From Escherichia phage RCS47, in sequence record NC_042128.1: a stretch of DNA of 64,000 nucleotides, one strand, 5' to 3'. The notes under the pieces are model-generated. The model was given only the letters and a program-made list of their open reading frames with translations. It did no database searches and was not told where the DNA came from. Below are positions 2,071-39,591 of this stretch, piece after piece; position 1 is the stretch's first letter; each line of letters begins with the position of its first letter. The position numbers were made by a program, and so were the translations under genes.

Positions 2071-2075
2071 GCCAT

Positions 2076-4192: not shown

Positions 4193-4225
4193 ATTATGCG
4201 ACGCCCGGCGAACCGGGCGCTCCTG

Positions 4226-7200
4226 TTATGCGTATTGTTGGATGACGGCCAGAACGTCCGCCACGTTGTGTTTTGTCTCGATAATCCACCAGTTACCCGG
4301 GAAATCGCTGTTCTTCGCCTTCGCTGGCAGCCAGCGAGCGCCGAATTTCGCCTTGATTGCGTCTTTCGCACGGAAAAGAACGCCTTTCATGCCTGAGGCT
4401 TCCTGAAGCCCAAATACCTCGCCAGCGGCGAATTTTGGTGCGTACATCATCTTCAGGTCGGCGGTGGATACGCGATAATTCAGACCAAGAGACTGAGCTA
4501 TGCTGGTGGCATCACCCTGTATTGATGATAACTCTTCTTGTTTCTCGTTTCTGGCGGCAATTTCTTCCTCCGTGATGTTGCCAAGGGCCAGGTTTATCCG
4601 ATCAGCGTCGGCCTGTTTCTCTTCATCGGTGCGTCCGGCAAGAACCGTGTTAACTCTCTGCAATATCTCCACATGATTCTTGCGCATGCTGAGCAATTCC
4701 GGCGTAACCTCGTTAAGATCCACCAGCCCAAGGATGGCAAGGTCGGAAAACATTGATACCAGGTTGTAGGTCATGCGATAGCTGAGTTGACCATAGGCTG
4801 ATGGCAACTTCACCGCATCCATTTGATAGGCATCCATAAATTTAGAGCCGTCGTTTACGACATCCGCAATTGCCGGTGTGATTTTTCCTGTGGTGGCGGC
4901 CTCCCTGATTGCTGTTACCCACGATTGAGTCAGCGCGGCGACTGCATGATTCAGATTGGCTTTCCGTTCTGCTGCAATGCGCGCACTTGCTGCGTCCATT
5001 GCCTGCTTGATCTCGTCTTTATTGCTGTAAATGCCAATGGTGCCAAACTGTGCTGTGGTGATCTCATAATCTGACGCCCGGAACTCATTGGTACCGAAAA
5101 TGGCATTGGTGACTTCAAGTTCAGAATCCCCGTTACGAGTAGACCCCTGGCTTGTTTTTTCCGGCATTCTGGCGATCGCATCCGCTATTTTCTCCTGAAT
5201 TGCTTCAGGGGATAGCGTATCTCCGTATGACGCGATTACATCGCCATAATTGGAGCCAAACAATTCAACCAGGAATGTTTCTGCCGAACGGATCTGGCGG
5301 TTATTCCCTTCCGACATCATACCAAGCACCCATTTTGCAATTGACGACTTCAGCGCGCCGTCACGGCGATCCGGGTAAACCGCATGCTTCAGTGGGTCCG
5401 TATAGGTGCCAACAAAATCAATGCTATAGCCTGACTCTGTAGTCTGAACGCCGTATGAGTCAGTGATTTTGATCATGCCGCGCTGCTGGAAACGGTAGAA
5501 ATCGTCACAGGAAATGATGTCGTTAATCCCGGCGATGGAGACGCCACCACTGATTTTCTGCATAACAGCATCTTCATCGGGAGTTACATCCACCTGTTTA
5601 TCCAGCGTCTTCACATCCCAGTTACCCGATTTGGTGCCTTTGAAGGTAAAGATGATCTCCACGTCTGCGCGCGGGCTGTCGAAGTCCAGCGACTTAATGC
5701 GAACGATATCACCGGCACAATCGTAGTATTGGCCTACACGCCATGAGCGATCGCCGATAACAAGGAACTCATTCGCATGGTTAACCAGATCAGGATCAAC
5801 ATCCAGAATGCCTTTATTTATTGCATCCTCCACCAGCGGGCGCAGGCGTTTGATATCCGTCGCGGCCTTCTGAGTACGGTTCAATAATTTCTCATAGCGG
5901 GAGATGGCCTGAGAGATATTAGCCTTGCGCTGAATGGCGCTTTTCAACGACGCGCGATACTGTGCTAACAACGTACGGTCTGTGTGATGGACGCTACCCC
6001 AGCGGGCTTTCCAGTCTGCGTTATCAGCTGCTTTGGCCATTACCGCCTGTTTGAATTTAGCTACCTCGGCGGTGGTCTTTTCAAGTTCCGCTTTGCTTCG
6101 CTCTAATTCAGCGGTAAGTACCTCCGCATCCTCGCCAGCTGCGTGCTGCGCCTTGATGTAGCTCTGAAGGTCGATAGTAGCCTGTTCTTTCTGGCGAGCG
6201 CGTTGCGCGGCTTTCGCCTTATCCATTTGAACCTGCATCATTGCCAGACGTTCGCCGTCATCCTTCGCGGTATACATCTGCATTTCGATCATGTCATTGG
6301 CGTCGGCGTTCTCCATTTCCGACTTATCTGAACGGAGGATATCGGAGATCCAGCCTGCTTTACGCTTCAGCGTCTTCAATCGGTATTCATCGAAAGACCC
6401 CTTGCCGCAGTAGTAGTGAACGCGAACGCTTGCACGGTTGGAGCCAACTCGAGCACCGCGACCGTTACGTTGTGCGATGCTGGCTGGAGTCCACGGCAAC
6501 GTCAGGTGGTGGATATCCGTCGTTCCTCGATGCAGGTTGATACCCACCTCTGCCTTTTTGTTGCAGATGATGATCGGAGTCCGGCCCTCCTGGAAGTCGG
6601 CTGCAATCTTTTCCAGACCGCCCAACGACATTTCATTTTGCTGCGCGATATAGGCGTCATACAGAGCCATTTGCTCGTTGTATTTCGCTATCTGTGCATC
6701 TGTTGGTTCATCCGGTAACTCTTTCGGCGGTTTAACCGCTTTCAGTTTCTTACCGGTTTTACCTGCCTCGGCAACCGTCTGAGCATTCAGGATCCCCACC
6801 TTTGAAGGTTCAAGGTTAAGAGCATTGCAGATAATGCGCTTGAGCTTCTGGTGCTGCGTTTTTTCATCGGTGAAGATGATTTGCTTACCTTCCGGGAAAA
6901 ACTCCTTCAGCGTGGCAATCAGCTTCGCGTATTTGGGCGTAACGGGGTGAGTTACGGTCTGTTCGTCAATGCCAAACCTGGCCAGGCGCTTATTCACTTC
7001 CTGCTCGAACGCTTCCGGAACCTGTAACTGAATAAACTCGCCCTTATCTATCAGGGAGTATTGCGATTGCTGCGTGATTGAATCATCACTGTCGTCGTCT
7101 TCGCTGGTGGCTTGTTTAGGCAAACTGTCCGCCAGCTGCTGCACCGCATCGGCGTACTCCGGCAGGAAACGATAGGTGATCCGGCGATAGTACAGGTCCA

Positions 7201-10200
7201 TGTCAGTACATACGCGGTCCATATCCCTGATTATTGAGAAGATCGGACGGGCCTTCTCGTGCTCAATCACGCCGTCTTCATTGACCGAGGTCGTTACGCC
7301 ATTGTTGGCTTTTGCTGTCGCTTCCGCCTGCTGACGCAATTCTTCATACGCCGCCAGTTGTTCTTCAGTAAGTGGTGCATCCTGCTGGTGTTCGTCCAGT
7401 GCCGGGATCTCCACGGTATCCTTAACGTCTTCCGCCGTTTTAAGCGTTGTCCAGCGATGGAATATGCCGCGCAGCGCATCAAGGTTTTCAAAGCCCACCA
7501 GCGCCATTTTTTCTTCAACTTCACCGCTGATTTTCTGTACCGTTTCCAGCCTGGTCTTGCCGAAGAATTTAACGAAGTCATCAGGACCGTAGATCCCCAT
7601 CTTCTGCCAGTATTCCTTCGGCAGAACATGAGAAAGCATGTTGTATGCATCGATCGGGGTGTTAACGACTGGCGTTGCAGTCAGGAGAACCGGTCCGCGC
7701 CCGCCATTCTTTTTCATCAGGTACGCGTTTTTGATTGCCATATCTCGCGCCGATTGCGCTACCGCGCTGGTGGGCAGATAGGCCAGCTGTGACGCTTCGC
7801 GACCATTTTTATAGCTATTGCGGTAGTTGTGGCCTTCGTCGGCGATCACGCTGTCGAAGCCCATATCCTCAAAGTACGGATACTTCTCTGCTTTTTCGGT
7901 ACCGGTATCTGAATACTCCGACAATACCCGGCGACGCGCCGCCTCTTTGCGATGGGAATCGGAATCCATTGCGCTGGCTACGCGCCCAGCGGCAACGAAG
8001 TCATAAAGCATATCCTGTGCATGCTCATCTACGGTGTCATCACGTAGCGGAATGCGGGCGTATTGTTCTTTGGTAAACACGACTGCACGGTAATTTGAGT
8101 GCGGGATCGCGTTCATCCGCGCCGTGATAGTGGCTTCATCTGCCAGCTTAAGAGCATCGCGCATAACTGGAGTGCCATCAGTACCAAGAACTGGTTTACC
8201 GTTCTCATCGAGCACCGGCACCTGGCGAATCTGATCGCCATCCATCAGCACATCAAGACCGACGAACAGGTAGTTACTGAATGCCTCTTCACTCAGGAAT
8301 TCTTTTGCTTCGTAATACCAGTTTTCCAGCACTGATTTAGGCACTACATACGCAGTACGGGTGGAGCGACCGTTCTCATAGTTGAACGCCTCAAGCGCCA
8401 GTGCGGTCGTTGTTTTACCCAGCCCGGTGCCGAAGCCCAGGATGCCGCGCCCATCTTCGGACAGTCGGCGCACCTCGCTATTCTGGTAATCAAATGGCTG
8501 GCGCTTACCGCTTAATCCCTTCAACCCAAGCGGATCGCCAGAGTGTTCATACGGGATATTGCTATTGAACACATCGTTGTATTTGGCAACCAGCTCATCG
8601 TAGCGATCGTGCGTCTTGATCCACTTATTGAACTGGTCCTCAAGCAGTGCCATCTGCTCGCGGTAGCCGTTCGCCGTCGCGCTATCTTTGCCACCGATAC
8701 GCGCACCATTGAGATACTTTTCCAGCTGTGCCGGGAACCCGGTCGCGTTTTCACCTGATTTACGGTCCCACTCGTAGCGGATCTCGCCTGTTTCTTTATC
8801 CTTACGCTGGACGACACCGTATCGCTGCCCGACGAACAGGCCATCACCACCGTGATAGGTGTCAGAAACCATTTCGTCGCCTTCCAACTGCACTGACTGC
8901 ACATAGCGCAGATCCGGATAGCCGTTTTCCTGCAAAAACTCCAGAATGACGGAACGGTCGAACCAACGGCTATTGAGCTTAAAGCGGATATTCTCTGCTG
9001 GCGTCTTGATGCGCTTCTCTTCGATCGCTGCCAGCTGATTAAGGACGTTGTTCTTTACTGGACCGTCGGGGAGCGTGGCGAGGAATTCCTGTTTTGGAGC
9101 CACTATCTCGTTAATGTCGCCGCTGGTGGCGCGGGCGAACGGAACAATCCCGCCATACGGTGAAACCGCAATGCCAGGGGTGCTGGCCAATAAATTAAGC
9201 AACTCGTCATCACTGGCTGGCAGTTCGCCGGTAAACGCAAGGCGGAAATCATCGAGCTGGATTGGATCGCGAGTGAGATCACTGTAGAGATAACGCAGGG
9301 TGTCCTGATAGCTGGTGGAGTCATAACTGGCGCTGGAATCATGCGTAACCAGTTTTCCTGTCAGCTCGTCAGAAATAGTGCCATCCAGCTTAATTGCACC
9401 ACGGAAAGCAAACCAGGCGCGCGCACCGCTCCCCGATAATTTCGCTATCGGACCGCGACCGGGGTTACCAAAACGGTCAATCTCTGCCTGCAAACGGGAT
9501 ACCAGAGAAAGGCGCTGCTGTTCGATTTGTTCAGCACTATGCCCGGCGGCCTTCATGTCCTGATATTCAATTAACATCCGGCCAATCATCGCCCCGCGAT
9601 ACAAGCGTTCACGGTATTTTTCAGGCTGACTGTTAATCCAGTCCACCAGCTGCACCATATCGTCGCTGATTGATGTGGTGTACTTATCGCGGACATTTGC
9701 CATCTGGGTAAATGTCATACCGAGACGGCCTTCTGTTGTAGTCAGGTTACGCTGAAGAGCCTCCCAGCTATCCGCGCCATAACTGGCAGCATCAATCTTA
9801 AGCTCCTTACCAGCATCAGCTTCAATCCAGCGGCCACCAGCATATTTTTGCCATACGCCATTAATCAGGCGCATTTCCCCTTCACCAACAACGTCTGCGG
9901 TCGGTGACGGTTCAGCCATATCGAGCAAAGACCAGTCGATACGGCTTTCGAAACGATGAATCAGCTTCGCTTTAAGAGCCTGGTTATCAATCTGACCGTT
10001 GGCACGAACCTCAATACGCCCCCGGAAGCCCTTTTCCTGGGTGCCATGAACAAACCGGCGGCCATCCTTTTCAAACCACTTGCCAGAAATAAACGTTGGC
10101 CAAAGCATATTTGCCGATTCAAGAGTGCTTTCATCCACCAGGGGGATTTTCTCAGCCATCTCTGCCGGATGTTTGCGCATCAGCACCACATCTACGACCG

Positions 10201-10993
10201 TACTGGTCCCGTTTGCGTCAAAAGTACCGGTAGGCAAGCGGTGGGCACCAAGAAATTCAGCTTTACGGGATAGGCGCAGGCGTAACCGCTTCATGTTTGA
10301 ACCTGAAACAATGGACGGCGGCACAATCACGCACATGAATCCGCCTGGCTTTATCTTGTCCAGCATGCGGAGCATGAAGTAAGAACCCATGTCCATTTCT
10401 TCTGCGTAAGGCTTATCGATGTTGCGTGTGTTATCACGACCGCCGAACGGAACGTTACCCACAACATGGTCGAATGAATCATTAGGTGTGCTTATAGCCA
10501 GCTGTTCGAACGGGGAAATCTGTACGCTGTCTTCCGGGTGTAACAGCTGGTTTATACGACCGGAAACACTGCTGATCTCAGTCGCGGTAATCACCGTACC
10601 AACCGGTTTTGTCTCATTAAAAACGCCGGTGCCCGCCGATGGTTCCAGAGTGTTACCTACGTCCGCGCCGTAGAGCTTCATGATCTCCCAGACACCTTCA
10701 GCGATCGGCTTTGGTGTGTAATATTCGGAGACGGACCCGCCAATGCCGCCTTCACCGGTGTACCCAGCCAGGATCTGGCGCTGTTCATCTGTCAGTGTCG
10801 CGCCGTCCACCAGCGAATTAAGCAAATCTATCGCCTTCTGATTCGCCTCCCGGCGCAGTCGGTCATAGCTTTTGCCTTCCACCTTTTCCACGCCGTATCT
10901 AATCGGCGCTCGGTGAGATGTTATTGCCCTAATGTATTTCAATATTTCGCTGACACTTGAACAGCGAAACACCCCCATAGATAGCTTTTTCAT
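4226..10993 (-). CDS. darB: DarB antirestriction protein (methyltransferase plus helicase domains)
   Basis: single 2255-aa ORF; contains helicase-like motifs (GTGLGKTTTA, DEGHNYRN); size equals P1 DarB. Confidence 0.85.
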   Translation of the reverse strand: MKKLSMGVFRCSSVSEILKYIRAITSHRAPIRYGVEKVEGKSYDRLRREANQKAIDLLNSLVDGATLTDEQRQILAGYTGEGGIGGSVSEYYTPKPIAEGVWEIMKLYGADVGNTLEPSAGTGVFNETKPVGTVITATEISSVSGRINQLLHPEDSVQISPFEQLAISTPNDSFDHVVGNVPFGGRDNTRNIDKPYAEEMDMGSYFMLRMLDKIKPGGFMCVIVPPSIVSGSNMKRLRLRLSRKAEFLGAHRLPTGTFDANGTSTVVDVVLMRKHPAEMAEKIPLVDESTLESANMLWPTFISGKWFEKDGRRFVHGTQEKGFRGRIEVRANGQIDNQALKAKLIHRFESRIDWSLLDMAEPSPTADVVGEGEMRLINGVWQKYAGGRWIEADAGKELKIDAASYGADSWEALQRNLTTTEGRLGMTFTQMANVRDKYTTSISDDMVQLVDWINSQPEKYRERLYRGAMIGRMLIEYQDMKAAGHSAEQIEQQRLSLVSRLQAEIDRFGNPGRGPIAKLSGSGARAWFAFRGAIKLDGTISDELTGKLVTHDSSASYDSTSYQDTLRYLYSDLTRDPIQLDDFRLAFTGELPASDDELLNLLASTPGIAVSPYGGIVPFARATSGDINEIVAPKQEFLATLPDGPVKNNVLNQLAAIEEKRIKTPAENIRFKLNSRWFDRSVILEFLQENGYPDLRYVQSVQLEGDEMVSDTYHGGDGLFVGQRYGVVQRKDKETGEIRYEWDRKSGENATGFPAQLEKYLNGARIGGKDSATANGYREQMALLEDQFNKWIKTHDRYDELVAKYNDVFNSNIPYEHSGDPLGLKGLSGKRQPFDYQNSEVRRLSEDGRGILGFGTGLGKTTTALALEAFNYENGRSTRTAYVVPKSVLENWYYEAKEFLSEEAFSNYLFVGLDVLMDGDQIRQVPVLDENGKPVLGTDGTPVMRDALKLADEATITARMNAIPHSNYRAVVFTKEQYARIPLRDDTVDEHAQDMLYDFVAAGRVASAMDSDSHRKEAARRRVLSEYSDTGTEKAEKYPYFEDMGFDSVIADEGHNYRNSYKNGREASQLAYLPTSAVAQSARDMAIKNAYLMKKNGGRGPVLLTATPVVNTPIDAYNMLSHVLPKEYWQKMGIYGPDDFVKFFGKTRLETVQKISGEVEEKMALVGFENLDALRGIFHRWTTLKTAEDVKDTVEIPALDEHQQDAPLTEEQLAAYEELRQQAEATAKANNGVTTSVNEDGVIEHEKARPIFSIIRDMDRVCTDMDLYYRRITYRFLPEYADAVQQLADSLPKQATSEDDDSDDSITQQSQYSLIDKGEFIQLQVPEAFEQEVNKRLARFGIDEQTVTHPVTPKYAKLIATLKEFFPEGKQIIFTDEKTQHQKLKRIICNALNLEPSKVGILNAQTVAEAGKTGKKLKAVKPPKELPDEPTDAQIAKYNEQMALYDAYIAQQNEMSLGGLEKIAADFQEGRTPIIICNKKAEVGINLHRGTTDIHHLTLPWTPASIAQRNGRGARVGSNRASVRVHYYCGKGSFDEYRLKTLKRKAGWISDILRSDKSEMENADANDMIEMQMYTAKDDGERLAMMQVQMDKAKAAQRARQKEQATIDLQSYIKAQHAAGEDAEVLTAELERSKAELEKTTAEVAKFKQAVMAKAADNADWKARWGSVHHTDRTLLAQYRASLKSAIQRKANISQAISRYEKLLNRTQKAATDIKRLRPLVEDAINKGILDVDPDLVNHANEFLVIGDRSWRVGQYYDCAGDIVRIKSLDFDSPRADVEIIFTFKGTKSGNWDVKTLDKQVDVTPDEDAVMQKISGGVSIAGINDIISCDDFYRFQQRGMIKITDSYGVQTTESGYSIDFVGTYTDPLKHAVYPDRRDGALKSSIAKWVLGMMSEGNNRQIRSAETFLVELFGSNYGDVIASYGDTLSPEAIQEKIADAIARMPEKTSQGSTRNGDSELEVTNAIFGTNEFRASDYEITTAQFGTIGIYSNKDEIKQAMDAASARIAAERKANLNHAVAALTQSWVTAIREAATTGKITPAIADVVNDGSKFMDAYQMDAVKLPSAYGQLSYRMTYNLVSMFSDLAILGLVDLNEVTPELLSMRKNHVEILQRVNTVLAGRTDEEKQADADRINLALGNITEEEIAARNEKQEELSSIQGDATSIAQSLGLNYRVSTADLKMMYAPKFAAGEVFGLQEASGMKGVLFRAKDAIKAKFGARWLPAKAKNSDFPGNWWIIETKHNVADVLAVIQQYA

Positions 10994-15494: not shown

Positions 15495-15946
15495 ATGAAT
15501 AACATGACAACGAAAGAGCTTTTGACGGCACTTCCAAAATACAAAAGCCATAAAACAGTTCGCGCCTCAAAAATCAAAGATATCGAAATTATCGCCCTAA
15601 TGGATGTGGTCCTTTTTTGCAACATCGAAGTCGTTGAGCCAGAAGGGGTAAAAGTCCATGTTGATAAAATATTTTTGCAAAAACACCGACCAGAAATTGG
15701 CGGATATCTGGTCGCTTATGAGGACGGATCTCTGTCCTATTCACCAGAAAAAACATTTGAAGAAGGCTTTAGTCGGACTAACGACTTCTTCGAAAATGGG
15801 GTATCGCTCAGCATTGAAGGTCACAATGGGGTGACATTCATTACAGCCAGGGACGTAACTATTTCTGCTGGCGGTATCGCTACTCTACAAGAAGAAATCG
15901 ACCTTGAAGCAGCCGACTTTTCTGACGCGCTGATGTGGCTGAAGGA
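15495..15946 (+). pseudogene. 5' part of a phage gene interrupted by the IS26 unit
   Basis: ORF from ATG 15495 runs in frame into the IS26 left end; its continuation is found after the second IS26 at 25584. Confidence 0.65.
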
Positions 15947-16766
15947 GGCACTGTTGCAAATAGTCGGTGGTGATAAACTTATCATCCCCTTTTGCTGATG
16001 GAGCTGCACATGAACCCATTCAAAGGCCGGCATTTTCAGCGTGACATCATTCTGTGGGCCGTACGCTGGTACTGCAAATACGGCATCAGTTACCGTGAGC
16101 TGCAGGAGATGCTGGCTGAACGCGGAGTGAATGTCGATCACTCCACGATTTACCGCTGGGTTCAGCGTTATGCGCCTGAAATGGAAAAACGGCTGCGCTG
16201 GTACTGGCGTAACCCTTCCGATCTTTGCCCGTGGCACATGGATGAAACCTACGTGAAGGTCAATGGCCGCTGGGCGTATCTGTACCGGGCCGTCGACAGC
16301 CGGGGCCGCACTGTCGATTTTTATCTCTCCTCCCGTCGTAACAGCAAAGCTGCATACCGGTTTCTGGGTAAAATCCTCAACAACGTGAAGAAGTGGCAGA
16401 TCCCGCGATTCATCAACACGGATAAAGCGCCCGCCTATGGTCGCGCGCTTGCTCTGCTCAAACGCGAAGGCCGGTGCCCGTCTGACGTTGAACACCGACA
16501 GATTAAGTACCGGAACAACGTGATTGAATGCGATCATGGCAAACTGAAACGGATAATCGGCGCCACGCTGGGATTTAAATCCATGAAGACGGCTTACGCC
16601 ACCATCAAAGGTATTGAGGTGATGCGTGCACTACGCAAAGGCCAGGCCTCAGCATTTTATTATGGTGATCCCCTGGGCGAAATGCGCCTGGTAAGCAGAG
16701 TTTTTGAAATGTAAGGCCTTTGAATAAGACAAAAGGCTGCCTCATCGCTAACTTTGCAACAGTGCC
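15947..16766 (+). mobile_element. IS26 copy 1
   Basis: 820 bp, ends GGCACTGTTGCAAA ... TTTGCAACAGTGCC. Confidence 0.92.
16010..16714 (+). CDS. tnpA: IS26 transposase
   Basis: 234 aa [35 protein letters not shown]... Confidence 0.95.
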
Positions 16767-17421
16767 TTTCGCCCTCATCCGGTTCATGACGGTCGGGCAG
16801 GGAGGCAATCTGAATATGGCGATACTGGCCGGCATATTCGGTAATAAGATGGCTTAAATTGCCGTCCACCTTCTGCGCGTGAAACAGATCTAACTGCACC
16901 GCCAGGTTCGGCCTGTCGACCCGTTTCACCATCGCCAGCGTCTGATATTGACTGTGGTAGAGATAGCCCGGTTTGGTCTGCGGATTCAGCGCTTCGATGA
17001 GTATCCGCTTGTCGTGGCGGGCAAAGCACTCCGCCGCGTAGCGCAGATTATCGATAAGCACGGCCTCGCAGGCTGCGCGATCCGCTCCCGGCGGCACCAC
17101 GCCGGCCATGATATGCACCTGCGGGCAACCGAGCTGGCAGGCATACTCCAGCGCCAGCTCAATATCGCGTCGGGCCTCCGCGCTTCTCCCGGGGATGGCG
17201 GCGAGCCCCCATTCTCCGGCGTTGACGTCGCCGGGTGGGGTATTGAACAGCACCAGCTGCAGCTGGTTCTCCTGCAGGCGCTGTCTGATTTCCCCGGCGG
17301 CATACTCATAGGGAAACAGAAACTCAACGGCTTCAAATCCCGCCCGGGCAGCGGCGGCAAAGCGTTCCAGGAACGGCAGTTCGGTAAACAGCATGGATAA
17401 ATTTGCAGCGAATTTTGGCAT
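16767..17421 (-). pseudogene. ygbM: ygbM-like hydroxypyruvate isomerase family gene, 3' end truncated by IS26
   Basis: N-terminal ~218 aa intact, reading frame continues into IS26. Confidence 0.65.
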
Positions 17422-17425
17422 GGTT

Positions 17426-18046
17426 TTATCTCAGTTCTTTTACTTCGTCAGCGGTCAGGTAGCGGATCTCGCGGTTGCCGAGGGTAAATATCAGCCGTGC
17501 GGTCTCTTCCAGTTCCTCGGTATTGTTGGTGGCTTCGCGCAGCGATGAGCCAGTAACCACCGGTCCGTGGTTGGCCAGTAAAAAGGCGTTATAGCGGGGC
17601 GCCAGCCCGGCCAGCGCCTGGGCAATACGGTCATCGCCCGGCCGGTAGTAGGGAACCACCGGGACGTCGCCGACGCGCATCACCACATAGGGGGTAAAGG
17701 GGCGGATACAGTTGTGCGGATCGAGCCCCTGCAGGCAGGAGAGCGCGGTCAGATAGTGGCTGTGCAAGTGGACGATCGCCTTGCAGGCCGGGTTGTGCAA
17801 ATAGACTGCCCGGTGAAAAGTGACCTCTTTCGACGGTTTGTCGCCGGAGATCCATTCTCCTTGCAGCGTCACCACCGACAACCGCTGAGCCTGCAGTTCG
17901 CCGAGGCAGGCGCCGGTCGGCGTCGCCAGCAGGTTGCCGTCCGGCAGCAGCAGCGACAGATTGCCAGCGGAGCCGGTGGCATAGCCGCGGCTAAATAACG
18001 AGGCGCCAATCTGCACCATTTCCTCTCGCAGTTGTTGCTCAGTCAT
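17426..18046 (-). CDS. ygbL: class II aldolase/adducin family protein (YgbL-like)
   Basis: 206 aa from ATG 18046; part of ygbJKLM-type operon. Confidence 0.65.
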
Positions 18047-19304
18047 GACGAAACTCCTGCTGGGCACGGGCAAAGAACTGGATATCGCCGAAGTTACCTG
18101 ACTTCAGCGCCAGGGAGAGCGGCTGGCGGGTGTCACGCACCCAGGGCACGCCAGGGGAGATGGTCGGCCCAATATGGAACGCCTCAACCCCCAGGGTCTG
18201 CGCCACAATGCTCGACGTTTCCCCTCCGGCCACAATAAAGCGGGTAAATCCTTTCGCCTTCAGGGCGGCGGCAAGAGCGGCAAACAGCTGTTCCACCCGT
18301 TCGCTGCTGGCCTTGTCGCCATACTGCGCCTGGATCCGCTGCAGCGTTTGCGGCTCGGTGGTGGCATAGATCATCGGCGCCAGCGGCGCATCGCGCTGCG
18401 CGTCCACCCAGTCAGTCAGCGTCCTGACGTAGCTCTCCAGATCGGTAAAGCAGGCGCTTAAGTCGACGGCGCGGGCGGGGGCCTGTTGACGATAGGCCGC
18501 CACCTGGCTGTTGGTCATCACCGAGCAGGAGCCCGAGAGCACCACCGCCGGGCCGACCAGCGGCATGCCGGCCTGAGCGCTTTCACCCCGGGCGCCATGG
18601 CGCTGCGCCAAGTCGCGGGCGAGGCCGATGGCGAGGCCGGAACCGCCGGAGACCAGCTTCATCTCCCGCAGCGCCACGCCCTGGGTGAGCAGATCCTGTT
18701 CGCTGAGGGCGTCGAGCACCACATAGCGCACCGCCGGATCGTTGACTGCCGCCAGCGCGGCGGCGACCGCCTCCGGCCCCCGGGCGACAATCGGCCAGGC
18801 AATCAGCGCGGCTTTTCCGCGCCCCTGGCGCTCAATTAAGCGGCCCAGGTGCGCATCCTCCATCGGCGTCACCGGATGGTGGCGCATCCCGGACTCATTC
18901 AGCAGTTGCTCGCCGACGAACAGATATCCCTGATAGACCGTGCGGCCGTTAACCGGCAGCGCCGGGGAAATCACCGTCCGCGTCTCACCCAGCTCGGCCA
19001 GCAGGGCATCCAGCACCGGGCCAATGTTGCCCTGCGCGGTGCTGTCGAAAGTGGAACAGTACTTGAAATAAAACTGCTGACAGCCCTGGGCCTGCAGCCA
19101 GCGCAGGGCCGCCAGCGACTGGCTGACGGCCATTTCCGCCGGGCAGGAGCGAGTTTTCAGGCTGATGACCACCGCCTCGCTGGTCAGCGGAAGATCGCGG
19201 GTCGGCACGCCATTCAGTTGCACCGTCGGCATGCCGTTGCGCACGAGGAAGCTGGCAATATCCGTGGCGCCGGTGAAGTCATCGGCAATGACACCAAGCT
19301 GCAT
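18039..19304 (-). CDS. ygbK: four-carbon acid sugar kinase family protein (YgbK-like)
   Basis: ~421 aa; operon context. Confidence 0.6.
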   Translation of the reverse strand: MQLGVIADDFTGATDIASFLVRNGMPTVQLNGVPTRDLPLTSEAVVISLKTRSCPAEMAVSQSLAALRWLQAQGCQQFYFKYCSTFDSTAQGNIGPVLDALLAELGETRTVISPALPVNGRTVYQGYLFVGEQLLNESGMRHHPVTPMEDAHLGRLIERQGRGKAALIAWPIVARGPEAVAAALAAVNDPAVRYVVLDALSEQDLLTQGVALREMKLVSGGSGLAIGLARDLAQRHGARGESAQAGMPLVGPAVVLSGSCSVMTNSQVAAYRQQAPARAVDLSACFTDLESYVRTLTDWVDAQRDAPLAPMIYATTEPQTLQRIQAQYGDKASSERVEQLFAALAAALKAKGFTRFIVAGGETSSIVAQTLGVEAFHIGPTISPGVPWVRDTRQPLSLALKSGNFGDIQFFARAQQEFRHD

Positions 19305-19315
19305 GTTGTCTCTCC

Positions 19316-20218
19316 TCACTGTTTATGGCCCGGCAGGGTGATGCCGTTGAAAATCTTGATCACCGCGCTGTCATCTTCCCGACCGAATCCGGCATTACTG
19401 GCGGAGGTGAACATATTCAGCGCGGTGGTAGCGAGCGGCAGCGGGAAGGTCAGCGCCCGGGCAGTGTCATTCACCAGCCCGAGATCTTTGACAAAAATAT
19501 CGACAGCGGATTTTGGCGAGTAATCGCCATCCAGGACGTGCTGCATGCGATTCTCAAACATCCATGAATTACCCGCCGCGTGGGTGACCACGTCATACAT
19601 CGTTTCGAGTGGGATCCCGGCGCGGGCGGCAAGCGCCATCGCTTCGGCGGCAACGGCGATGTGCACCCCGGCCAGCAGCTGATGGATAATTTTTACCGTC
19701 GAGCCAAGACCAATGTCGCTCCCTATGCGGTAGACTTTGCCGGCCACGGCGTCCAGCACCGGCGCGAGGCGGGCAAAGGCGGCATCGCTCCCGGAGGCCA
19801 TCACCGTCATGTCGCCGGCGGCCGCTTTCACGGCGCCGCCCGATACCGGCGCGTCGAGCATCAATAGCTGGTACTCCGCCAGCGCCTCGGCAATGGCCTG
19901 AGCATCGGCGGAAGCGATGGTGGACGACACCATCACGACGGTGCCCGGCTTCAGATGGGCGGCGAGGCCGCTCTCGCCGAACAGGATCCCCCGCACCTGG
20001 GCGGCATTGACCACCAGCAGCACAACTGCATCCAGTTCCGCGGCGAACGGCACCGCGCTGGGGCCCGCGCCATTGGCGCCCGCCGCCAGCAGTGCGCGAC
20101 AGTTGTCGGGATTGATGTCAACGCCCCAGGTGTTCAGGCCCGCCTGCAGGCAGGCGCGGGCGGCGCCCATGCCCATTGAACCCAGTCCAATCACGCAGAC
20201 GTTAGTGTGTGCAGCCAT
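19316..20218 (-). CDS. ygbJ: NAD-dependent 3-hydroxyisobutyrate dehydrogenase family protein (YgbJ-like)
   Basis: 300 aa; N-terminal GLGSMG Rossmann motif. Confidence 0.7.
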   Translation of the reverse strand: MAAHTNVCVIGLGSMGMGAARACLQAGLNTWGVDINPDNCRALLAAGANGAGPSAVPFAAELDAVVLLVVNAAQVRGILFGESGLAAHLKPGTVVMVSSTIASADAQAIAEALAEYQLLMLDAPVSGGAVKAAAGDMTVMASGSDAAFARLAPVLDAVAGKVYRIGSDIGLGSTVKIIHQLLAGVHIAVAAEAMALAARAGIPLETMYDVVTHAAGNSWMFENRMQHVLDGDYSPKSAVDIFVKDLGLVNDTARALTFPLPLATTALNMFTSASNAGFGREDDSAVIKIFNGITLPGHKQ

Positions 20219-20478
20219 GCTGGTCTCCTTGTGAACATTAGTTAATTAATGTGATTTAATGATAGAATAAAGCGTTATCATGTGAATTTATGTGAGAGTT
20301 ATCACGAATAACCCACATGAATATAAAAAATTCACAGGCGGAAAGAGGCTGCACAACGGCGATTCTTGCCCTAAAATAGCGTAAAAACAGCGGCAAAGCG
20401 CGATAACAACACCGGGTGTCGCCAGGGCCGTAGCCTGGGTGGTGACGCCTGGTGTGAAAAAATGGTAAGGGGAGAGCG

Positions 20479-21240
20479 GTGATTCCAATAGAACGACATC
20501 AGCGTATTTTAGCCCTGGTGGAGCAGCGTGGGGCGGTAAGCATTAACGAGCTGACGGAGATCCTCGGCGTGTCCCATATGACCATCCGTCGGGACGTCAG
20601 TAAACTGGAGGAGCAGGGGCTGCTGGTCAGCGTCTCGGGCGGCGTGCGCGCCGTCAGCCGGCTGGCTGCGGAACCCAGTCATCTGGTGAAAAGCACGCTG
20701 CAGAGTGAGGAGAAACAGGCGATCGGCGCGCTGGCGGCGAGTCATATCGCTAAAAACAGTTGCATCTATCTGGATGCCGGGACTACCACCCTGGCGCTGG
20801 CGCGGGCGATCCTCGACCGGAACGATCTCCAGGTGGTCACCAATGATTTTGAGATAACCCAGCTGCTGATCGATGCCAGCCAGTGCGGCGTGATCCACAC
20901 CGGCGGCACTCTGTGCCGGGAGAACCGCTCCTGCGTGGGCGAATCGGCGGCGCGTACGTTACGCCACCTGGCTATCGATACGGCCTTTATCTCCGCCAGC
21001 GGCTGGGACAGTCGCGGGATATTCACCCCTGATGAGAACAAGGTTACCGTCAAGGAGACCGTCAGCCAGGTCAGCGCGAGAAGCATCCTGCTGTGCGACA
21101 GTTCGAAATACAATCAGGTGGCCACGTTTATGGCGTTACCTTTGACCCGGTTCACCACCATCATTACCGACCGGCATCTTTCCGATGCCGCCGCCAGTCA
21201 TATCGCCCGGCACGCCTGCGAGGTGCTGCGGGCCGGATAA
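20479..21240 (+). CDS. ygbI: DeoR family transcriptional regulator (YgbI-like)
   Basis: 253 aa; N-terminal HTH then sugar-binding domain; divergent from ygbJ. Confidence 0.7.
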   Translation: MIPIERHQRILALVEQRGAVSINELTEILGVSHMTIRRDVSKLEEQGLLVSVSGGVRAVSRLAAEPSHLVKSTLQSEEKQAIGALAASHIAKNSCIYLDAGTTTLALARAILDRNDLQVVTNDFEITQLLIDASQCGVIHTGGTLCRENRSCVGESAARTLRHLAIDTAFISASGWDSRGIFTPDENKVTVKETVSQVSARSILLCDSSKYNQVATFMALPLTRFTTIITDRHLSDAAASHIARHACEVLRAG

Positions 21241-21260
21241 CGCGCGCGGCCACCGCCGGG

Positions 21261-22121
21261 TTAGCGTTGCCAGTGCTCGATCAGCGCCGCGCCGATCCCG
21301 GCGATTTGCTGATTTCGCTCGGCCATGCTCGCCGGGGTATCCCGCAGATAAATCACCACAATGCGCTCTGCTTTGTTATTCGGGCCAAGCAGGGCGACAA
21401 TCCCGCGCGCACCCCGCTCGCTAGCTCCGGTCTTATCGGCGATAAACCAGCCCGCCGGCAGCACGGAGCGGATCAACGGTCCGGCGACCCGATCGTCCAC
21501 CATCCACTGCAGCAGCTGCCGTTGCGAACGGGCGCTCAGACGCTGGCTGGTCAGCAGCTTGCGCAGGGTCGCGGCCATGCTGGCCGGGGTAGTGGTGTCG
21601 CGGGCGTCGCCGGGAAGCGCCTCATTCAGTTCCGTTTCCCAGCGGTCAAGGCGGGTGACGTTGTCGCCGATCTGGCGCAAAAAGGCAGTCAATCCTGCGG
21701 GGCCGCCGACGGTGGCCAGTAGCAGATTGGCGGCGCTGTTATCGCTCATGGTAATGGCGGCGGCGCAGAGTTCGCCGACCGTCATGCCGTCGGCAAGGTG
21801 TTTTTCGCTGACCGGCGAGTAGTCCACCAGATCCTGCTGGCGATAGTGGATCTTTCGCTCCAGCTGTTCGTCACCGGCATCCACCCGCGCCAGCACTGCG
21901 CCGCAGAGCACTACTTTAAAGGTGCTCATCATGGGAAAGCGTTCATCGGCGCGCCAGGCGGTCAGCGTGCGGCCGCTGGCCAGATCCATTTCTATCATGC
22001 CTACGCGGCCCGACAGCTGGCTTTCGCTTAGTTTAATTTGCTCAAGCGGCTGCGGGCTGGCGTGTACCGCCAGCGGCAGGGTGGCTAACAGGGAGATAAT
22101 ACACAGGCGAATATAACGCAT
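21261..22121 (-). CDS. blaSHV: SHV class A beta-lactamase, Ser238 variant (SHV-2-like, extended-spectrum)
   Basis: 286 aa [21 protein letters not shown]...; [11 protein letters not shown] with AGC (Ser) codon at Ambler 238, Glu240, Leu35. Confidence 0.93.
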
Positions 22122-22397
22122 AACCACAATACATCCTTGAGTGAGGGCCGATAAAGGCGAGTAAAGAAGCGACAAATAAGAATAACCCGGCGTTTTGCTG
22201 ATTCACAATTCCTCTTTTTTCCTTCATCATTTTTCATCTTTTATTTCGAATAATCAATATCTAGCCCTGCCTAAGCACGCTATTTTTTGACTCAAGGCCG
22301 TGATGAACTATAAGAAAGTACTAAATACCGCACTCTGTCGGGCGTCGCTGTTTGCCGATCACCACGCCCGCCGGTCCCTGCGGTTCGCCAACGCTAT

Positions 22398-22679
22398 ATG
22401 CCATCCCGGGAGGAACTGGTGCACCCGATAATTAAGGTCATGCTGGTGGGCGGTAAGGCGGACGGGCTGTTGGTCAGCGTCGCCGATGACGCGACCGAAG
22501 TCTCGGTGACGCCTGCGCAGTACGGTGCGCTATCCGGGCAATCGTTGAGCTACCGAATTGTTAGCCAAACCATTGACGATGAACGCTATTTTTTTGGCGT
22601 TTTCAGCGACGCCCATCAGGATAGCGATAAGCTGACGCGGGTCGCCCTGACCCGTGGAATGAAAAAAATGTTCTGTTAA
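22398..22679 (+). CDS. hypothetical small protein upstream of recF-like ATPase
   Basis: 93-aa ORF, no recognisable motif. Confidence 0.3.
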   Translation: MPSREELVHPIIKVMLVGGKADGLLVSVADDATEVSVTPAQYGALSGQSLSYRIVSQTIDDERYFFGVFSDAHQDSDKLTRVALTRGMKKMFC

Positions 22680-22765
22680 ACCCTGCCCGAAAGGGGGCGT
22701 AAGAGGGTATGCCGGGCGCCGCTGTGCTACTGTGGCAGCCTTCTATTTCCAGGGCCGGACGCATA

Positions 22766-23854
22766 ATGATTCAGTACATTCGTATTCAAAATTTTCGCTC
22801 AGTAAAGGATATCGCGCTGGAGCTCGGGCCGCTGAACATTGTCTTCGGCCCTAACGGCTGCGGTAAATCCAATATTTATAACGCCATCCACCTGCTGACC
22901 GCTGCCGCTGAGGGCAGGCTTTCGGGGTTTATCAGCGAAGAGGGCGGTCTGGAGAATATGATGTGGTCCGGGGAGCGTTCGCCCCTCGATCGTCACCCCC
23001 GCCGGCTGCAAATCGCCTGCCGGACCGACAGCTTCGATTATGAACTGCAGATAGGCTTCCCTGAAAAATTGCCCTATCCGACGCAATTCATGCTCGATCC
23101 TATCGTTAAAGAAGAGAATATCTGGCTGGCCGGCTACTCCCGCCGGCCTTCCTCCCGCGTACTGCAGCGCAAGAATCAGGCGGCGTTTCTCGTCGATGTC
23201 ACCGGGGAGAAAAGTACTTTCACCGAGAGTATTTATGAAAATGAGTCGGTGTTCGGTCAGCTTGGCGAGCCGCACCGTTTTCCCGAAGTATCGCGAGTGC
23301 GGGAGACGCTGCGCCGTTGGCGGTTTTATCATGAATTCGCGATTGGCCGTCATTCGCCACTGCGTCAGCCGGCCGTGGGTTACCGTTCGCCAGTCCTCGA
23401 CAGCGATGGCCAGAATCTCGCCGCCGCCTTTCAGACCATTGTCGAGATCGGCGCGGAGGAGATTTTGCATGAAATCCTTGCCGACGCCTTTCCCGGCTGC
23501 CAGTTTTATTGTGAAAACGAGCACTCGCGTTTCGCTCTGAAAATGCGTCGCGAAGGGATCCGCCGCCCGCTGCTGGCGGCGGAGATGTCCGACGGTACGC
23601 TGCGCTTTTTGTGCCTCGCCGTCGCGCTGCTCAGTCCGCGCCCGCCGGCGTTTCTGGCGATCAATGAACCGGAGAACAGCCTGCATCGCGACATGTTGCC
23701 CGCGCTGGCCCGGCTGATTATCGAGGCCTCGCGCTACAGCCAGATCTGGCTGACCAGCCACTCGGCGGAGCTGGCGGAGCTTATCGCCGCCGGGGCGCCT
23801 TGTCAGCGCTATGCGCTGGAGAATCGCGGCGGTGAGACGCGGATTGTCGAGTGA
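22766..23854 (+). CDS. RecF-like AAA family ATPase
   Basis: 362 aa from ATG 22766; MIQYIRIQNFRS, Walker A GPNGCGKSN, C-terminal LAINEPENSLH. Confidence 0.7.
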   Translation: MIQYIRIQNFRSVKDIALELGPLNIVFGPNGCGKSNIYNAIHLLTAAAEGRLSGFISEEGGLENMMWSGERSPLDRHPRRLQIACRTDSFDYELQIGFPEKLPYPTQFMLDPIVKEENIWLAGYSRRPSSRVLQRKNQAAFLVDVTGEKSTFTESIYENESVFGQLGEPHRFPEVSRVRETLRRWRFYHEFAIGRHSPLRQPAVGYRSPVLDSDGQNLAAAFQTIVEIGAEEILHEILADAFPGCQFYCENEHSRFALKMRREGIRRPLLAAEMSDGTLRFLCLAVALLSPRPPAFLAINEPENSLHRDMLPALARLIIEASRYSQIWLTSHSAELAELIAAGAPCQRYALENRGGETRIVE

Positions 23855-23884
23855 AGCCCGTCATCCCTGACGGGGGCGCTGGAG

Positions 23885-24763
23885 TCAGGCGGGGCTCTGC
23901 GTCTCTGCGGTCGGCAGCAGACGGTTGCCGCCGCGTAGGGTGACGAACGAGAGCAGGGTGAAGCTCAGGGTTATGCAGCCGAGGATCAGATAGGCCTGAT
24001 GGAAGCCGACGGTGTCGTACATCCGGCCCACCCAGGCGGAAAGCACCACCCCGGACAGCTGTTTTGACAGATTAAAACCGATCAGGAACAGGGTGGCCGA
24101 GAGGCGCGGGTTAAAGGCGGAAGAGATATATTTAAAAGTTCCCACCAGCAGGAAGGGGATCTCAAACATATGCAGCATCTTGAGGATCACCACCTCGACT
24201 GCCGATGAGGCGAAGGACGACCCGAGAATACGCACCGACATGATCATCCCCGCGGTCAGCAGGGCGTTTTTGGCGCCGATGCGGTTAACGATGGCCGGCG
24301 CGCAGAACATGATCAGCGCGTTGAGCAACTCGCCGCCGGTGGTGACGAAGCCAAACACTTCGGTACCGCGCTGCGGACTGGCGAAAAAGCTTTTGAAAAA
24401 GTTGGCGAACTGCTGGTCAAACACGTCGTAGACGCTGGCGACACCCACCACATAGACGATAAAGCCCCAGAAGCGCGGCATACGCAGCAGCTCTGCCGCC
24501 GTACGCAGCGAAAAGGCCTGGCGATTGGCGCCCAGCGCCTCGATAACCTGGGCGCTGTTGCTGCTTTCCGGCCGCGACAGCCAGAGCAGCAGACCGAGCA
24601 CCAGCGCAAAGCCGGAGGCGATCCAGAAGGTGATATTGGGATCGATGCCGAACAGCACGCCGGTTATCGAGGCGCATAGCGCCCAGCCGACGCAGCCTGC
24701 GACCCGCACTTTGCCATATTCAAAGCGGTTGGCCCGGCTGACGCGTTCGATATAAGCTTCCAC
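23885..24763 (-). pseudogene. lacY: lacY lactose permease, 5' end truncated by IS26
   Basis: C-terminal ~290 aa of an MFS permease colinear with LacY (...FEYGKVRVAGCVGWALCAS...); frame continues into IS26. Confidence 0.8.
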
Positions 24764-25583
24764 GGCACTGTTGCAAATAGTCGGTGGTGATAAACTTATC
24801 ATCCCCTTTTGCTGATGGAGCTGCACATGAACCCATTCAAAGGCCGGCATTTTCAGCGTGACATCATTCTGTGGGCCGTACGCTGGTACTGCAAATACGG
24901 CATCAGTTACCGTGAGCTGCAGGAGATGCTGGCTGAACGCGGAGTGAATGTCGATCACTCCACGATTTACCGCTGGGTTCAGCGTTATGCGCCTGAAATG
25001 GAAAAACGGCTGCGCTGGTACTGGCGTAACCCTTCCGATCTTTGCCCGTGGCACATGGATGAAACCTACGTGAAGGTCAATGGCCGCTGGGCGTATCTGT
25101 ACCGGGCCGTCGACAGCCGGGGCCGCACTGTCGATTTTTATCTCTCCTCCCGTCGTAACAGCAAAGCTGCATACCGGTTTCTGGGTAAAATCCTCAACAA
25201 CGTGAAGAAGTGGCAGATCCCGCGATTCATCAACACGGATAAAGCGCCCGCCTATGGTCGCGCGCTTGCTCTGCTCAAACGCGAAGGCCGGTGCCCGTCT
25301 GACGTTGAACACCGACAGATTAAGTACCGGAACAACGTGATTGAATGCGATCATGGCAAACTGAAACGGATAATCGGCGCCACGCTGGGATTTAAATCCA
25401 TGAAGACGGCTTACGCCACCATCAAAGGTATTGAGGTGATGCGTGCACTACGCAAAGGCCAGGCCTCAGCATTTTATTATGGTGATCCCCTGGGCGAAAT
25501 GCGCCTGGTAAGCAGAGTTTTTGAAATGTAAGGCCTTTGAATAAGACAAAAGGCTGCCTCATCGCTAACTTTGCAACAGTGCC
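24764..25583 (+). mobile_element. IS26 copy 2 (direct orientation)
   Basis: 820 bp with same terminal IRs and identical transposase ORF. Confidence 0.92.
24827..25531 (+). CDS. tnpA: IS26 transposase
   Basis: identical 234-aa product. Confidence 0.95.
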   Translation: MNPFKGRHFQRDIILWAVRWYCKYGISYRELQEMLAERGVNVDHSTIYRWVQRYAPEMEKRLRWYWRNPSDLCPWHMDETYVKVNGRWAYLYRAVDSRGRTVDFYLSSRRNSKAAYRFLGKILNNVKKWQIPRFINTDKAPAYGRALALLKREGRCPSDVEHRQIKYRNNVIECDHGKLKRIIGATLGFKSMKTAYATIKGIEVMRALRKGQASAFYYGDPLGEMRLVSRVFEM

Positions 25584-25816
25584 TGAAGGATGGCAAGAAA
25601 GTTGCTCGACGCGGGTGGAACGGCGAAAACCAATTCTGCTGGCTGGTTCCTGAAGGACAGTACCCGGCACGAATGGAAGCCATTAAGGGATATTTCCCCG
25701 GCGACCTCGTTCCGTATGGTGCTTATTTCGCCTTAAAAAATGCACAAGGTGTAGTTGTTCCGTGGGTTCCTTCTGTAGGCGACTTACTGGCATGTGACTG
25801 GTTTGTAGTGGAGTGA
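25584..25816 (+). pseudogene. 3' part of the interrupted phage gene; DUF2829/Tad2-like domain
   Basis: (K)DGKKVARRGWNGENQFCWLV...PWVPSVGDLLACDWFVVE, in frame with 15495-15946 after removal of the IS26 unit. Confidence 0.6.
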
Positions 25817-31139: not shown

Positions 31140-32477
31140 GCCTTATCCAATGTGCCGCCCCCTACGCTCCTCATAGTGGGGATATAAGGCACAGTTTTCC
31201 TCCCGGCTATTTTTGCTTAAAATAGTGACATGAAACAACAGGTGTCATTCAAATTCCGGTTAAAACCAGATGGTCAACAGGAGCGTCAAATGAGGCGCTT
31301 TGCCGGAGCTTGTCGTTTCGTTTTCAACCGTGCTCTGGCGCTTCAGAATGAGAATCATGAGGCCGGTAAAAAATACATCCCTTACACGAAAATGGCTTCC
31401 TGGTTGGTTGAGTGGAAAAAAGACACTGAAACCGAATGGCTTAAAGATTCTCCCTCACAGCCATTGCAACAGTCACTGAAAGACCTTGAGCGGGCTTACA
31501 AAAACTTCTTCCAGAATCGGGCAGCTTTTCCCCGATTCAAAAAGCGGGGACAGAATGATGCATTCCGCTACCCGCAGGGTGTTAAGCTCGATCAGGAAAA
31601 CAGCCGTATTTTTCTGCCGAAACTTGGCTGGATGCGCTACCGGAATAGCCGTCAGGTCACGGGTATTGTGAAAAATGTTACTGTCAGCCAGTCCTGCGGT
31701 AAGTGGTACATCAGTATTCAGACAGAAAGAGAGGTATCCACTCCTGTTCACCCTTCAGCATCAATGGTCGGACTGGATGCTGGCGTGGCTAAACTCGCCA
31801 CGCTGTCAGATGGCACAGTCTTTGAACCTGTAAATAGTTTTCAGAAAAACCAGAAGAAGCTGGCGAGACTTCAGCGACAGTTAAGCCGCAAGGTCAAATT
31901 CAGCAACAACTGGCAGAAGCAGAAACGCAAAATACAGCGACTGCATTCCCGTATCGCAAATATCCGCAGGGACTACCTTCACAAAGTCACAACGACCGTC
32001 AGCAAAAACCACGCAATGATTGTCATTGAGGATTTGAAGGTTAAATACATGTCAAAGTCAGCGGCGGGAACGATAAGTCATCCGGGTCGCAATGTCCGGG
32101 CAAAATCAGGTTTAAACCGTTCGATACTGGATCAGGGCTGGTATGAAATGCGCCGCCAGCTTGAGTACAAGCAGCTCTGGCGTGGCGGTCAGGTGCTTGC
32201 TGTTCCGCCAGCGTACACAAGCCAGCGTTGCGCGTGCTGTGGTCATACAGCGAAAGAAAATCGCCTGTCACAAAGTAAATTCAGATGCCAGGTATGTGGA
32301 TATACAGCGAACGCCGATGTAAACGGCGCTCGTAACATTTTAGCGGCGGGGCACGCCGTACTTGCCTGTGGAGGGATGGTGCAGTCAGGCCGCCCGTTGA
32401 AGCAGGAACCCACCGAAATGATTCAGGCGACAGCCTGAACGTAGCAGGAATCCACGCCCTTCGGGGCGTGGAGGATG
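31140..32477 (+). mobile_element. TnpB-only IS200/IS605-family element (boundaries approximate)
   Basis: tnpB ORF plus 3' hairpin CCACGCCC-TTCG-GGGCGTGG at 32452-32471; fills the ddrA-ddrB junction. Confidence 0.6.
31230..32438 (+). CDS. tnpB: TnpB RNA-guided endonuclease family protein
   Basis: 402 aa; [36 protein letters not shown]..., RuvC-like motifs and CxxC...CxxC zinc finger. Confidence 0.85.
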
Positions 32478-37194: not shown

Positions 37195-38496
37195 TTGAGC
37201 ACGGCTAACACATGGAGTGCGCGCCAGACTTTCAACGGAGGGATCACCGGGGCACTGACAGGGAACGCCGACACCGCGACGAAATTGAAAACAGCACGCA
37301 CTATTGGCGGTGTGGCATTTGATGGTACTGCGAATATTAATTTACCTGGTGTTAACGTTGCGGGTAATCAGAATACATCCGGTAACGCGGCTACAGCGAC
37401 CAAGTTGCAGACAGCATGTACTATCAACGGCGTCTCGTTTGATGGTTCTAAAAATATTGAGCTAACGGCGGAAGATTTAAATCTACAGGAATTTATTAAT
37501 AAAGCAAATAATGCCGTTCAGCGTTCAGGCGATATCTTGTCCGGCGGACTTACTTTTGAAAACGGCTCAATCCTTGCCTGGATTCGAAATACTGACTGGG
37601 CAAAGATTGGATTTAAAAATGATGCCGACAGCGACACAGATTCATACATGTGGTTTGAAACAGGCGACAACGGCAATGAATATTTCAAATGGAGAAGCAA
37701 ACAAAGCACCACAACAAAAGACCTGATGAATCTTAAATGGGATGCTTTGTCTGTTCTTGTTAAAGCCCTTTTCAGCAGTGAAGTAAAAATATCGACAGTC
37801 AATGCACTGAGGATATTTAATTCATCTTTTGGTGCCATTTTTCGCCGTTCTGAAGAATGCCTGCATATCATCCCTACACGAGAGAATGAGGGGGAAAATG
37901 GTGATATAGGGCCACTACGTCCCTTTACGCTTAATCTCAGAACTGGCCGCATAACTATGGGGCATGGTCTGGATGTTACAGGAGATATAACAACTAACGC
38001 CTGGGTGTATGCAAACAGGTTTGCTATTAATAGTGGCTCAACCTCATGGATTGATATGCGAAACCAGAATGTCATTTTTGGTAGAAACGCAGTATCAACA
38101 AGTTCTGCGCAGGCTTTGTTAAGACAAGACCATGCAGAACGCAAATTTTTTGTCGGTGGACTTGGTAACTACCAGTTTGGTTTTTACATGATTAATAACT
38201 CAAGGACAGCCAATGGCACCGATGGTCAGGCGTACATGGATAATAACGGTAACTGGCTTTGTGGCTCGCAAGTTATTCCTGGCAACTATGGCAATTTTGA
38301 TTCCAGATATGTGAGAGATGTTCGCCTGGGTACGCGAGTTGTTCAATTGATGGCGCGTGGTGGTCGTTATGAAAAAGCCGGACACGTAATTACCGGATTA
38401 AGAATCATTGGTGAAGTAGATGGCGATGATGAAGCCATCTTCAGGCCAATACAAAAATACATCAATGGCACATGGTATAACGTCGCACAGGTGTAA
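37195..38496 (+). CDS. Sv' alternative tail-fibre C-terminal segment (silent in this orientation)
   Basis: shares the STANTWSARQTFNGGITGALTGNADTATKLKTA segment with S across the inverted repeat. Confidence 0.6.
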   Translation: MSTANTWSARQTFNGGITGALTGNADTATKLKTARTIGGVAFDGTANINLPGVNVAGNQNTSGNAATATKLQTACTINGVSFDGSKNIELTAEDLNLQEFINKANNAVQRSGDILSGGLTFENGSILAWIRNTDWAKIGFKNDADSDTDSYMWFETGDNGNEYFKWRSKQSTTTKDLMNLKWDALSVLVKALFSSEVKISTVNALRIFNSSFGAIFRRSEECLHIIPTRENEGENGDIGPLRPFTLNLRTGRITMGHGLDVTGDITTNAWVYANRFAINSGSTSWIDMRNQNVIFGRNAVSTSSAQALLRQDHAERKFFVGGLGNYQFGFYMINNSRTANGTDGQAYMDNNGNWLCGSQVIPGNYGNFDSRYVRDVRLGTRVVQLMARGGRYEKAGHVITGLRIIGEVDGDDEAIFRPIQKYINGTWYNVAQV

Positions 38497-39589: not shown

Positions 39590-39591
39590 CG

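Follow-up and report, generated by a model that had tools for sequence, protein, structure and literature searches.

The blaSHV-2 gene of Escherichia phage RCS47: a G238S allele with a mobile-type promoter variant on a PTnSHV-L-type IS26 unit in a P1-like backbone

The window analysed here, i.e., the whole stretch of 64,000 nucleotides from Escherichia phage RCS47 (NC_042128.1), carries a beta-lactamase gene of the SHV family on its minus strand, with an ATG start codon at 22121-22119 and 286 codons followed by a TAA stop codon at 21263-21261. The gene lies within a segment of Klebsiella pneumoniae chromosomal origin that is bounded by two directly oriented IS26 copies, and this IS26 unit in turn interrupts a gene of a P1-like backbone (Table 1). 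An upstream TTG start at 22175 (304 aa) in a mechanical list of open reading frames was rejected: both the reference protein and the precursor in PDB use the ATG at 22121 as their start, and AAGGA lies ahead of this codon.

Table 1. Features of the blaSHV-2 locus, the IS26 unit and its insertion site (coordinates of the window)
Feature	Coordinates	Strand	Basis or comment
Interrupted P1-backbone gene, 5' part (product with C-terminal Tad2-like domain)	15495..15946	+	Alignment to uninterrupted pE6474.2 gene
Direct repeat TGAAGGA (7 bp) on either side of the unit	15940..15946 and 25584..25590	+	Single TGAAGGA in uninterrupted target
Whole IS26-bounded unit, PTnSHV-L-type pseudo-compound transposon, 9,637 bp	15947..25583		
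IS26 left copy, 820 bp (tnpA 16010..16714)	15947..16766	+	Terminal inverted repeats; identical to right copy
Segment of K. pneumoniae chromosomal origin, 7,997 bp	16767..24763		Collinear with chromosomal loci
Truncated AP-endonuclease-family gene	16767..17421	-	RefSeq annotation of identical-length unit
Aldolase	17426..18046	-	RefSeq annotation of identical-length unit
otnK	18039..19304	-	RefSeq annotation of identical-length unit
ltnD	19316..20218	-	RefSeq annotation of identical-length unit
DeoR regulator	20479..21240	+	RefSeq annotation of identical-length unit
blaSHV-2 CDS, 286 aa + stop	21261..22121	-	Exact match to SHV-2; NCBIfam NF000285 SHV, 666.4 bits
Codon GAG = Glu, Ambler 240	21417..21419	-	Not Lys, hence neither SHV-5 nor SHV-12
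Codon AGC = Ser, Ambler 238, ESBL-defining substitution	21420..21422	-	GGC in SHV-1 copies of the IS26 unit
Codon CTA = Leu, Ambler 35	22029..22031	-	Not Gln, hence neither SHV-2a nor SHV-12
Signal peptide, residues 1-21	22059..22121	-	Mature chains of PDB 1N9B and 1ONG begin at query residue 22
Shine-Dalgarno-like AAGGA upstream of ATG	22134..22138	-	Predicted
-10 box AAAAAT of blaSHV promoter, up-promoter variant	22229..22234	-	Chromosomal reference ACAAAT
Putative -35 box TTGATT, 17 nt upstream of -10 box	22252..22257	-	Predicted from sequence
Hypothetical protein, 86 aa	22419..22679	+	RefSeq annotation of identical-length unit
AAA ATPase	22766..23854	+	RefSeq annotation of identical-length unit
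lacY, 3' part	23885..24763	-	RefSeq annotation of identical-length unit
IS26 right copy, 820 bp (tnpA 24827..25531)	24764..25583	+	Direct orientation; identical to left copy
Interrupted P1-backbone gene, 3' part (most of Tad2-like domain)	25584..25816	+	PF11195 profile positions 9-73

Ambler positions were set by a script following SHV numbering, in which precursor residue i corresponds to Ambler i+4 and positions 239 and 253 are skipped; the anchors S70, K73, S130, E166 and K234-T235-G236 all fell on the expected residues. The initial annotation had described an SHV allele with serine at position 238, and both this minus-strand AGC codon and the motif of 12 residues quoted around it can be read directly from the sequence and its translation. 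The glutamate at position 240 (codon GAG) and the leucine at position 35 (codon CTA) that it had listed were confirmed as well, so that every coordinate and residue given there is correct. Its statement that the remainder of the protein equals SHV-1 also holds: the encoded protein is identical to the full-length SHV-1 precursor (PDB 3D4F; see also 1SHV) at 285 of 286 positions (E = 3.4e-186), and the sole difference is a change from glycine to serine at precursor residue 234, i.e., Ambler 238, with neither Gly238 nor any extra substitution in the present protein.

An exact-sequence look-up among ca. 15 billion proteins retrieved the entry “extended-spectrum class A beta-lactamase SHV-2” (UniProt BLA2_ECOLX) at 286/286 residues and showed that at least 500 contigs encode this exact protein. 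Its mature form, which comprises residues 22-286 and has SPQPLEQ at the N-terminus, is identical to the solved structure of SHV-2 (PDB 1N9B) over 265/265 residues, i.e., there is no difference from SHV-2 at the protein level. Chance is no concern for this assignment given the E-value of the match to SHV-1 and the exact match to the SHV-2 entry. In addition, the NCBIfam model for SHV (NF000285.3) scored 666.4 bits (cutoff 640), and the sister models for LEN and OKP scored under their own cutoffs. By its sequence, the allele is therefore SHV-2, which turns the earlier call of an SHV-2-like allele defined by G238S alone into an exact one; the IS26 unit and the P1-like phage-plasmid around the gene go beyond that call. 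Mis-assignment of another SHV ESBL allele such as SHV-2a, SHV-5, SHV-12 or an inhibitor-resistant variant has a probability of practically nil; beyond the serine at position 238 that SHV-2a, SHV-5 and SHV-12 have in common with SHV-2, we found no support for it, and it is already refuted by the full-length identity to SHV-2, Leu35 (glutamine in SHV-2a and SHV-12), Glu240 (lysine in SHV-5 and SHV-12) and the wild-type residues at positions 69, 130, 234 and 235.

The encoded protein carries all catalytic motifs of class A enzymes, i.e., S70-x-x-K73, S130-D-N, E166 and K234-T-G, and is a secreted serine beta-lactamase with Ser70 as nucleophile alongside Lys73, Ser130, Glu166 and Lys234-Thr235-Gly236. 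A single G-to-A change in the gene of the SHV-1 penicillinase of K. pneumoniae replaces Gly238 by serine. SHV-1 itself has Gly238 and is not an ESBL, while 238S confers ESBL activity according to a genotype-phenotype study from 2024 (PMC11493186). Structurally, G238S shifts the beta-3 strand so that it lies further from Ser70, and the active site becomes slightly larger (PMC5011133). As a consequence, oxyimino-cephalosporins are hydrolysed, with cefotaxime preferred over ceftazidime, and sensitivity to clavulanate is kept (PMC5011133; PMC11493186). The additional Glu240Lys substitution, which is absent here, turns SHV-5 and SHV-12 into strong ceftazidimases, and SHV-5 (E240K through a change at 21419) shows higher activity on both ceftazidime and aztreonam (PMC5011133). 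Allele identity and the literature together point to ESBL activity (functional group 2be) in the present host, and since SHV-2 is a clinically relevant ESBL, such a host should be reported as an ESBL carrier.

The gene is embedded in a unit whose structure can be observed directly, with terminal inverted repeats GGCACTGTTGCAAA at both IS26 ends. IS26 was annotated by transfer from one of the compared loci (L003), and gene names within the segment between the two copies follow the RefSeq annotation of a unit of identical length. All 7,997 bp of this segment align collinearly, at 99.3-99.7% identity, with each of four loci on K. pneumoniae chromosomes. One end of the segment lies within lacY and the other within the gene that follows the aldolase, and its GC content of 0.607 stands out against the 0.48-0.51 of the backbone flanks. 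By sequence, the whole unit is the published PTnSHV-L, an IS26-flanked element of 9,636 bp (PMC13148056), from which it differs in length by a single base pair (9,637 bp here) while sharing its gene content and its two direct IS26 copies (CP000603; PMC13148056). The examples of PTnSHV-L described in that study carry blaSHV-1 on IncFIB(K) and other plasmids and are often tandem-amplified, whereas the present unit carries blaSHV-2, occurs once and resides on a phage-plasmid.

A unit of the same length is present in thousands of plasmid records (PLSDB), and the sequences of individual copies are extremely similar. One nucleotide separates the present unit from a unit of Klebsiella michiganensis with blaSHV-2, and two nucleotides over 9,637 bp separate it from the unit of K. 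pneumoniae pINF223.2, which carries blaSHV-1 with the same promoter; one of these is position 21422, the codon-238 change, where the plus strand reads T here and C in pINF223.2. The same 9,637-bp unit on plasmid p1658/97 of E. coli (NC_004998) carries blaSHV-5, shares 238S and differs at four nucleotides, among them 21419 (E240K). Position 20381 in the intergenic region between ltnD and the DeoR regulator has a G that is private to the window, with C in three plasmid copies of the unit.

Because a single nucleotide (21422) distinguishes the gene from the SHV-1 version in a nearly identical unit, a base-calling or assembly error could in principle have created Ser238 from what is truly blaSHV-1, a penicillinase without ESBL activity. 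We consider this very improbable: the same nucleotide allele appears in many independent records including plasmid units annotated as blaSHV-2, the exact protein recurs on the contigs counted above, and a published P1-like element of the same architecture is reported as SHV-2. In a unit copy only one intergenic nucleotide away from the present one, the gene is called blaSHV-2 at 100% by RefSeq and AMRFinderPlus. According to the established picture, blaSHV was first mobilised out of the Klebsiella chromosome by IS26, and ESBL point mutations arose later in the mobile copy (PMC11493186; PMC13148056). The comparisons of units fit this order of IS26 mobilisation first and ESBL point mutation afterwards. 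In our reading, IS26 excised a 9.6-kb unit of the PTnSHV-L type from the chromosome of K. pneumoniae, and the ESBL mutation occurred as a point mutation inside the already mobile unit.

Chromosomal copies of blaSHV have ACAAAT as their -10 box, and the variant AAAAAT is consistently found in plasmid-borne copies, where it raises expression (PMC13148056). A generic scan for sigma-70 promoters between 21100 and 22750 returned none on the strand of blaSHV; the combination of TTGATT and AAAAAT matches the consensus at 8 of 12 positions and falls below the threshold of the scan. The promoter was therefore located through the published -10 box and comparison with chromosomal loci, using ten public loci that encode exactly SHV-2. 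The mobile SHV-2 copies among them have A at the variant position of the -10 box, as does the window, and three chromosomal loci of K. pneumoniae (L006, L008 and L010) have C. These three ACAAAT loci also show silent-site differences within the gene (nucleotides 402, 705 and 786), and independent G238S events are suggested as their origin. Four other chromosomal SHV-2 loci of K. pneumoniae have AAAAAT together with a gene that is 0-1 nucleotides away from the mobile allele. In K. pneumoniae, exact SHV-2 was thus also seen at its native locus on the chromosome (loci within L006-L013). An IS26 hybrid promoter was discarded as a candidate because ca. 2.6 kb separate the start codon from the nearest IS26 end upstream. 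We thus propose that blaSHV-2 is transcribed from its own promoter with the AAAAAT up-mutation that is typical of mobilised copies. The gene is apparently intact and functional-looking, with a native promoter that would be strong.

How much resistance would follow from this arrangement can be approached through clinical isolates. Among K. pneumoniae isolates with SHV-2 as their only acquired beta-lactamase, 3/6 were resistant to ceftazidime, 1/2 to cefotaxime and 3/3 to ceftriaxone (PMC11493186), and with these counts the phenotype of SHV-2 can be modest. The MICs conferred by SHV-2 from a single copy on a prophage may therefore be borderline. A more far-reaching reading is that SHV-2 on a single-copy prophage-plasmid is expressed too weakly for clinical resistance, leaving a genotypic ESBL in a susceptible or borderline host. 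Resistance to ceftazidime and cefotaxime in about half of the isolates with SHV-2 alone (PMC11493186) is in line with this, as are the scaling of blaSHV MICs with copy number (PMC13148056) and the low copy number of P1 prophages (PMC9603915), but the AAAAAT up-mutation in the promoter and the ceftriaxone resistance of all three SHV-2 isolates (PMC11493186) argue against it, and we regard it as unlikely. In contrast, we are highly confident in the reading of the locus as SHV-2, a G238S ESBL derivative of SHV-1, with its own AAAAAT promoter on a PTnSHV-L-type unit in a P1-like phage-plasmid.

This backbone, which is not that of an ordinary resistance plasmid, is evident on both sides of the unit. 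Positions 1-15900 match P1-like E. coli plasmids over 100% of their length at 98-99% identity, and positions 25600-50000 match P1-like plasmids with 91% cover at 96% identity. Further downstream, positions 44000-64000 are covered to 88-92% by matches to P1, P7 and SJ46, the last of which is the best phage match in INPHARED. The annotations underlying the matches to these three phages include darB, the portal gene prt, pro, lyz, ssb, ddrB, darA, sit, sheath and baseplate genes. The backbone resembles P1, P7 and SJ46 in nucleotide sequence and gene order across head, tail, lysis and anti-restriction genes, and is on this basis that of a P1-like phage-plasmid (Punavirus). A tyrosine-recombinase ORF lies at 436..1467, and repA, parAB, repL and the c1 repressor gene are probably located beyond the end of the 64-kb window.

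Within this backbone, the unit sits in the gene that directly follows ssb. In pE6474.2, the homologue is intact and encodes 225 aa with a C-terminal Tad2-like domain (Thoeris anti-defence 2-like, Pfam PF11195); the insertion splits the domain near position 8/9 of the PF11195 profile. An ORF of 81 aa (25571..25816) that starts inside the IS26 end still covers most of the Tad2-like domain. Acquisition of the resistance cargo has probably inactivated this putative anti-defence gene. The duplication at the insertion site comprises 7 bp, compared to the 8 bp expected of IS26; an alternative reading with 8 bp, CTGAAGGA, depends on counting the final C of IS26 as part of the repeat. The loss of one base pair or a homopolymer sequencing error at ...GTGCC/TGAAGG could account for the shorter repeat. 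A link to the IS1 of P1 as a second insertion in the same Tad2-like gene was rejected as unsupported since neither P1 IsaA nor IsaB had a Pfam match.

Junction-spanning searches of PLSDB, the INPHARED phages and 5,426 complete E. coli genomes yielded no record that shares the phage::IS26 junction, and an exact search for the junction in IMG/VR viral contigs gave 0 matches. The chimeric ORF at the right junction is not on record. For the chimeric ORF at the left junction, a single further contig is known, CBDGWB010000081.1 (3.5 kb; GCA_965259255.1), which has IS26 at the identical position of the Tad2-like gene (contig positions 2940..3518) and terminates inside IS26 before any cargo. Its lyz-ssb backbone shares only 98.9% identity with the window, and the initial 1.2 kb of the contig are a 94% match to the TnpB region of the window in a different arrangement. 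With this degree of backbone identity and the different arrangement, the contig represents a different P1-like element that shares the IS26 junction. It is tempting, though rather doubtful, to go further and propose that a second and independent P1-like phage-plasmid other than RCS47 acquired PTnSHV-L and that the Tad2-like gene is a recurrent landing site of IS26. If true, P1-like elements would repeatedly gain resistance cargo at the expense of a putative anti-Thoeris gene.

For the window itself, we propose that the unit landed in the Tad2-like gene of an Escherichia P1-like phage-plasmid and that the ESBL gene would since have been kept on a low-copy prophage-plasmid. Lysogenic conversion by a presumably infectious phage could in principle spread it. 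The allele and its arrangement are already known, having been published years ago as phage RCS47 (FO818745/NC_042128), which is described as having a P1-like backbone with blaSHV-2 and two flanking IS26 copies. The IS26 fragment of RCS47 was reportedly given as 9,636 bp by Billard-Pomares et al. in 2014. The value of the present analysis thus lies in annotation and surveillance, not in discovery. True phage genomes seldom carry resistance genes, and the phage-plasmid context adds some interest: a recent survey lists blaSHV-2 on RCS47 as the only case of a resistance gene among phage-plasmids classed as phages (PMC12217456). SJ46 with blaCTX-M-27 and JL22 with blaCTX-M-55 belong to the same P1-like backbone family, but their resistance genes, transposons and insertion sites are all different from those found here.

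Some further features of the backbone set the window apart from P1 or vary among its relatives. The darB-like ORF is found at 4226..10993 compared to 10469..17236 in P1, i.e., ca. 6.2 kb nearer to the start of the record, and because of this earlier start the res/mod region of P1 seems to be absent (region 1467..4226). The res-mod region is variable in published surveys of P1-like phages. Between the ddrB-like and darA-like genes, a plus-strand ORF of 402 aa (31230..32438) encodes IS605 OrfB/TnpB (Cas12f-like) domains and represents an insertion of the IS200/IS605 type that is present in some but not all P1-like relatives. Finally, a pair of inverted repeats of 351 nt (38496..38846 and 39243..39593; 70% complementary and 396 nt apart) adjoins a large tail-fibre ORF and is probably the invertible tail-fibre region (cin/C-segment) of P1-like phages.
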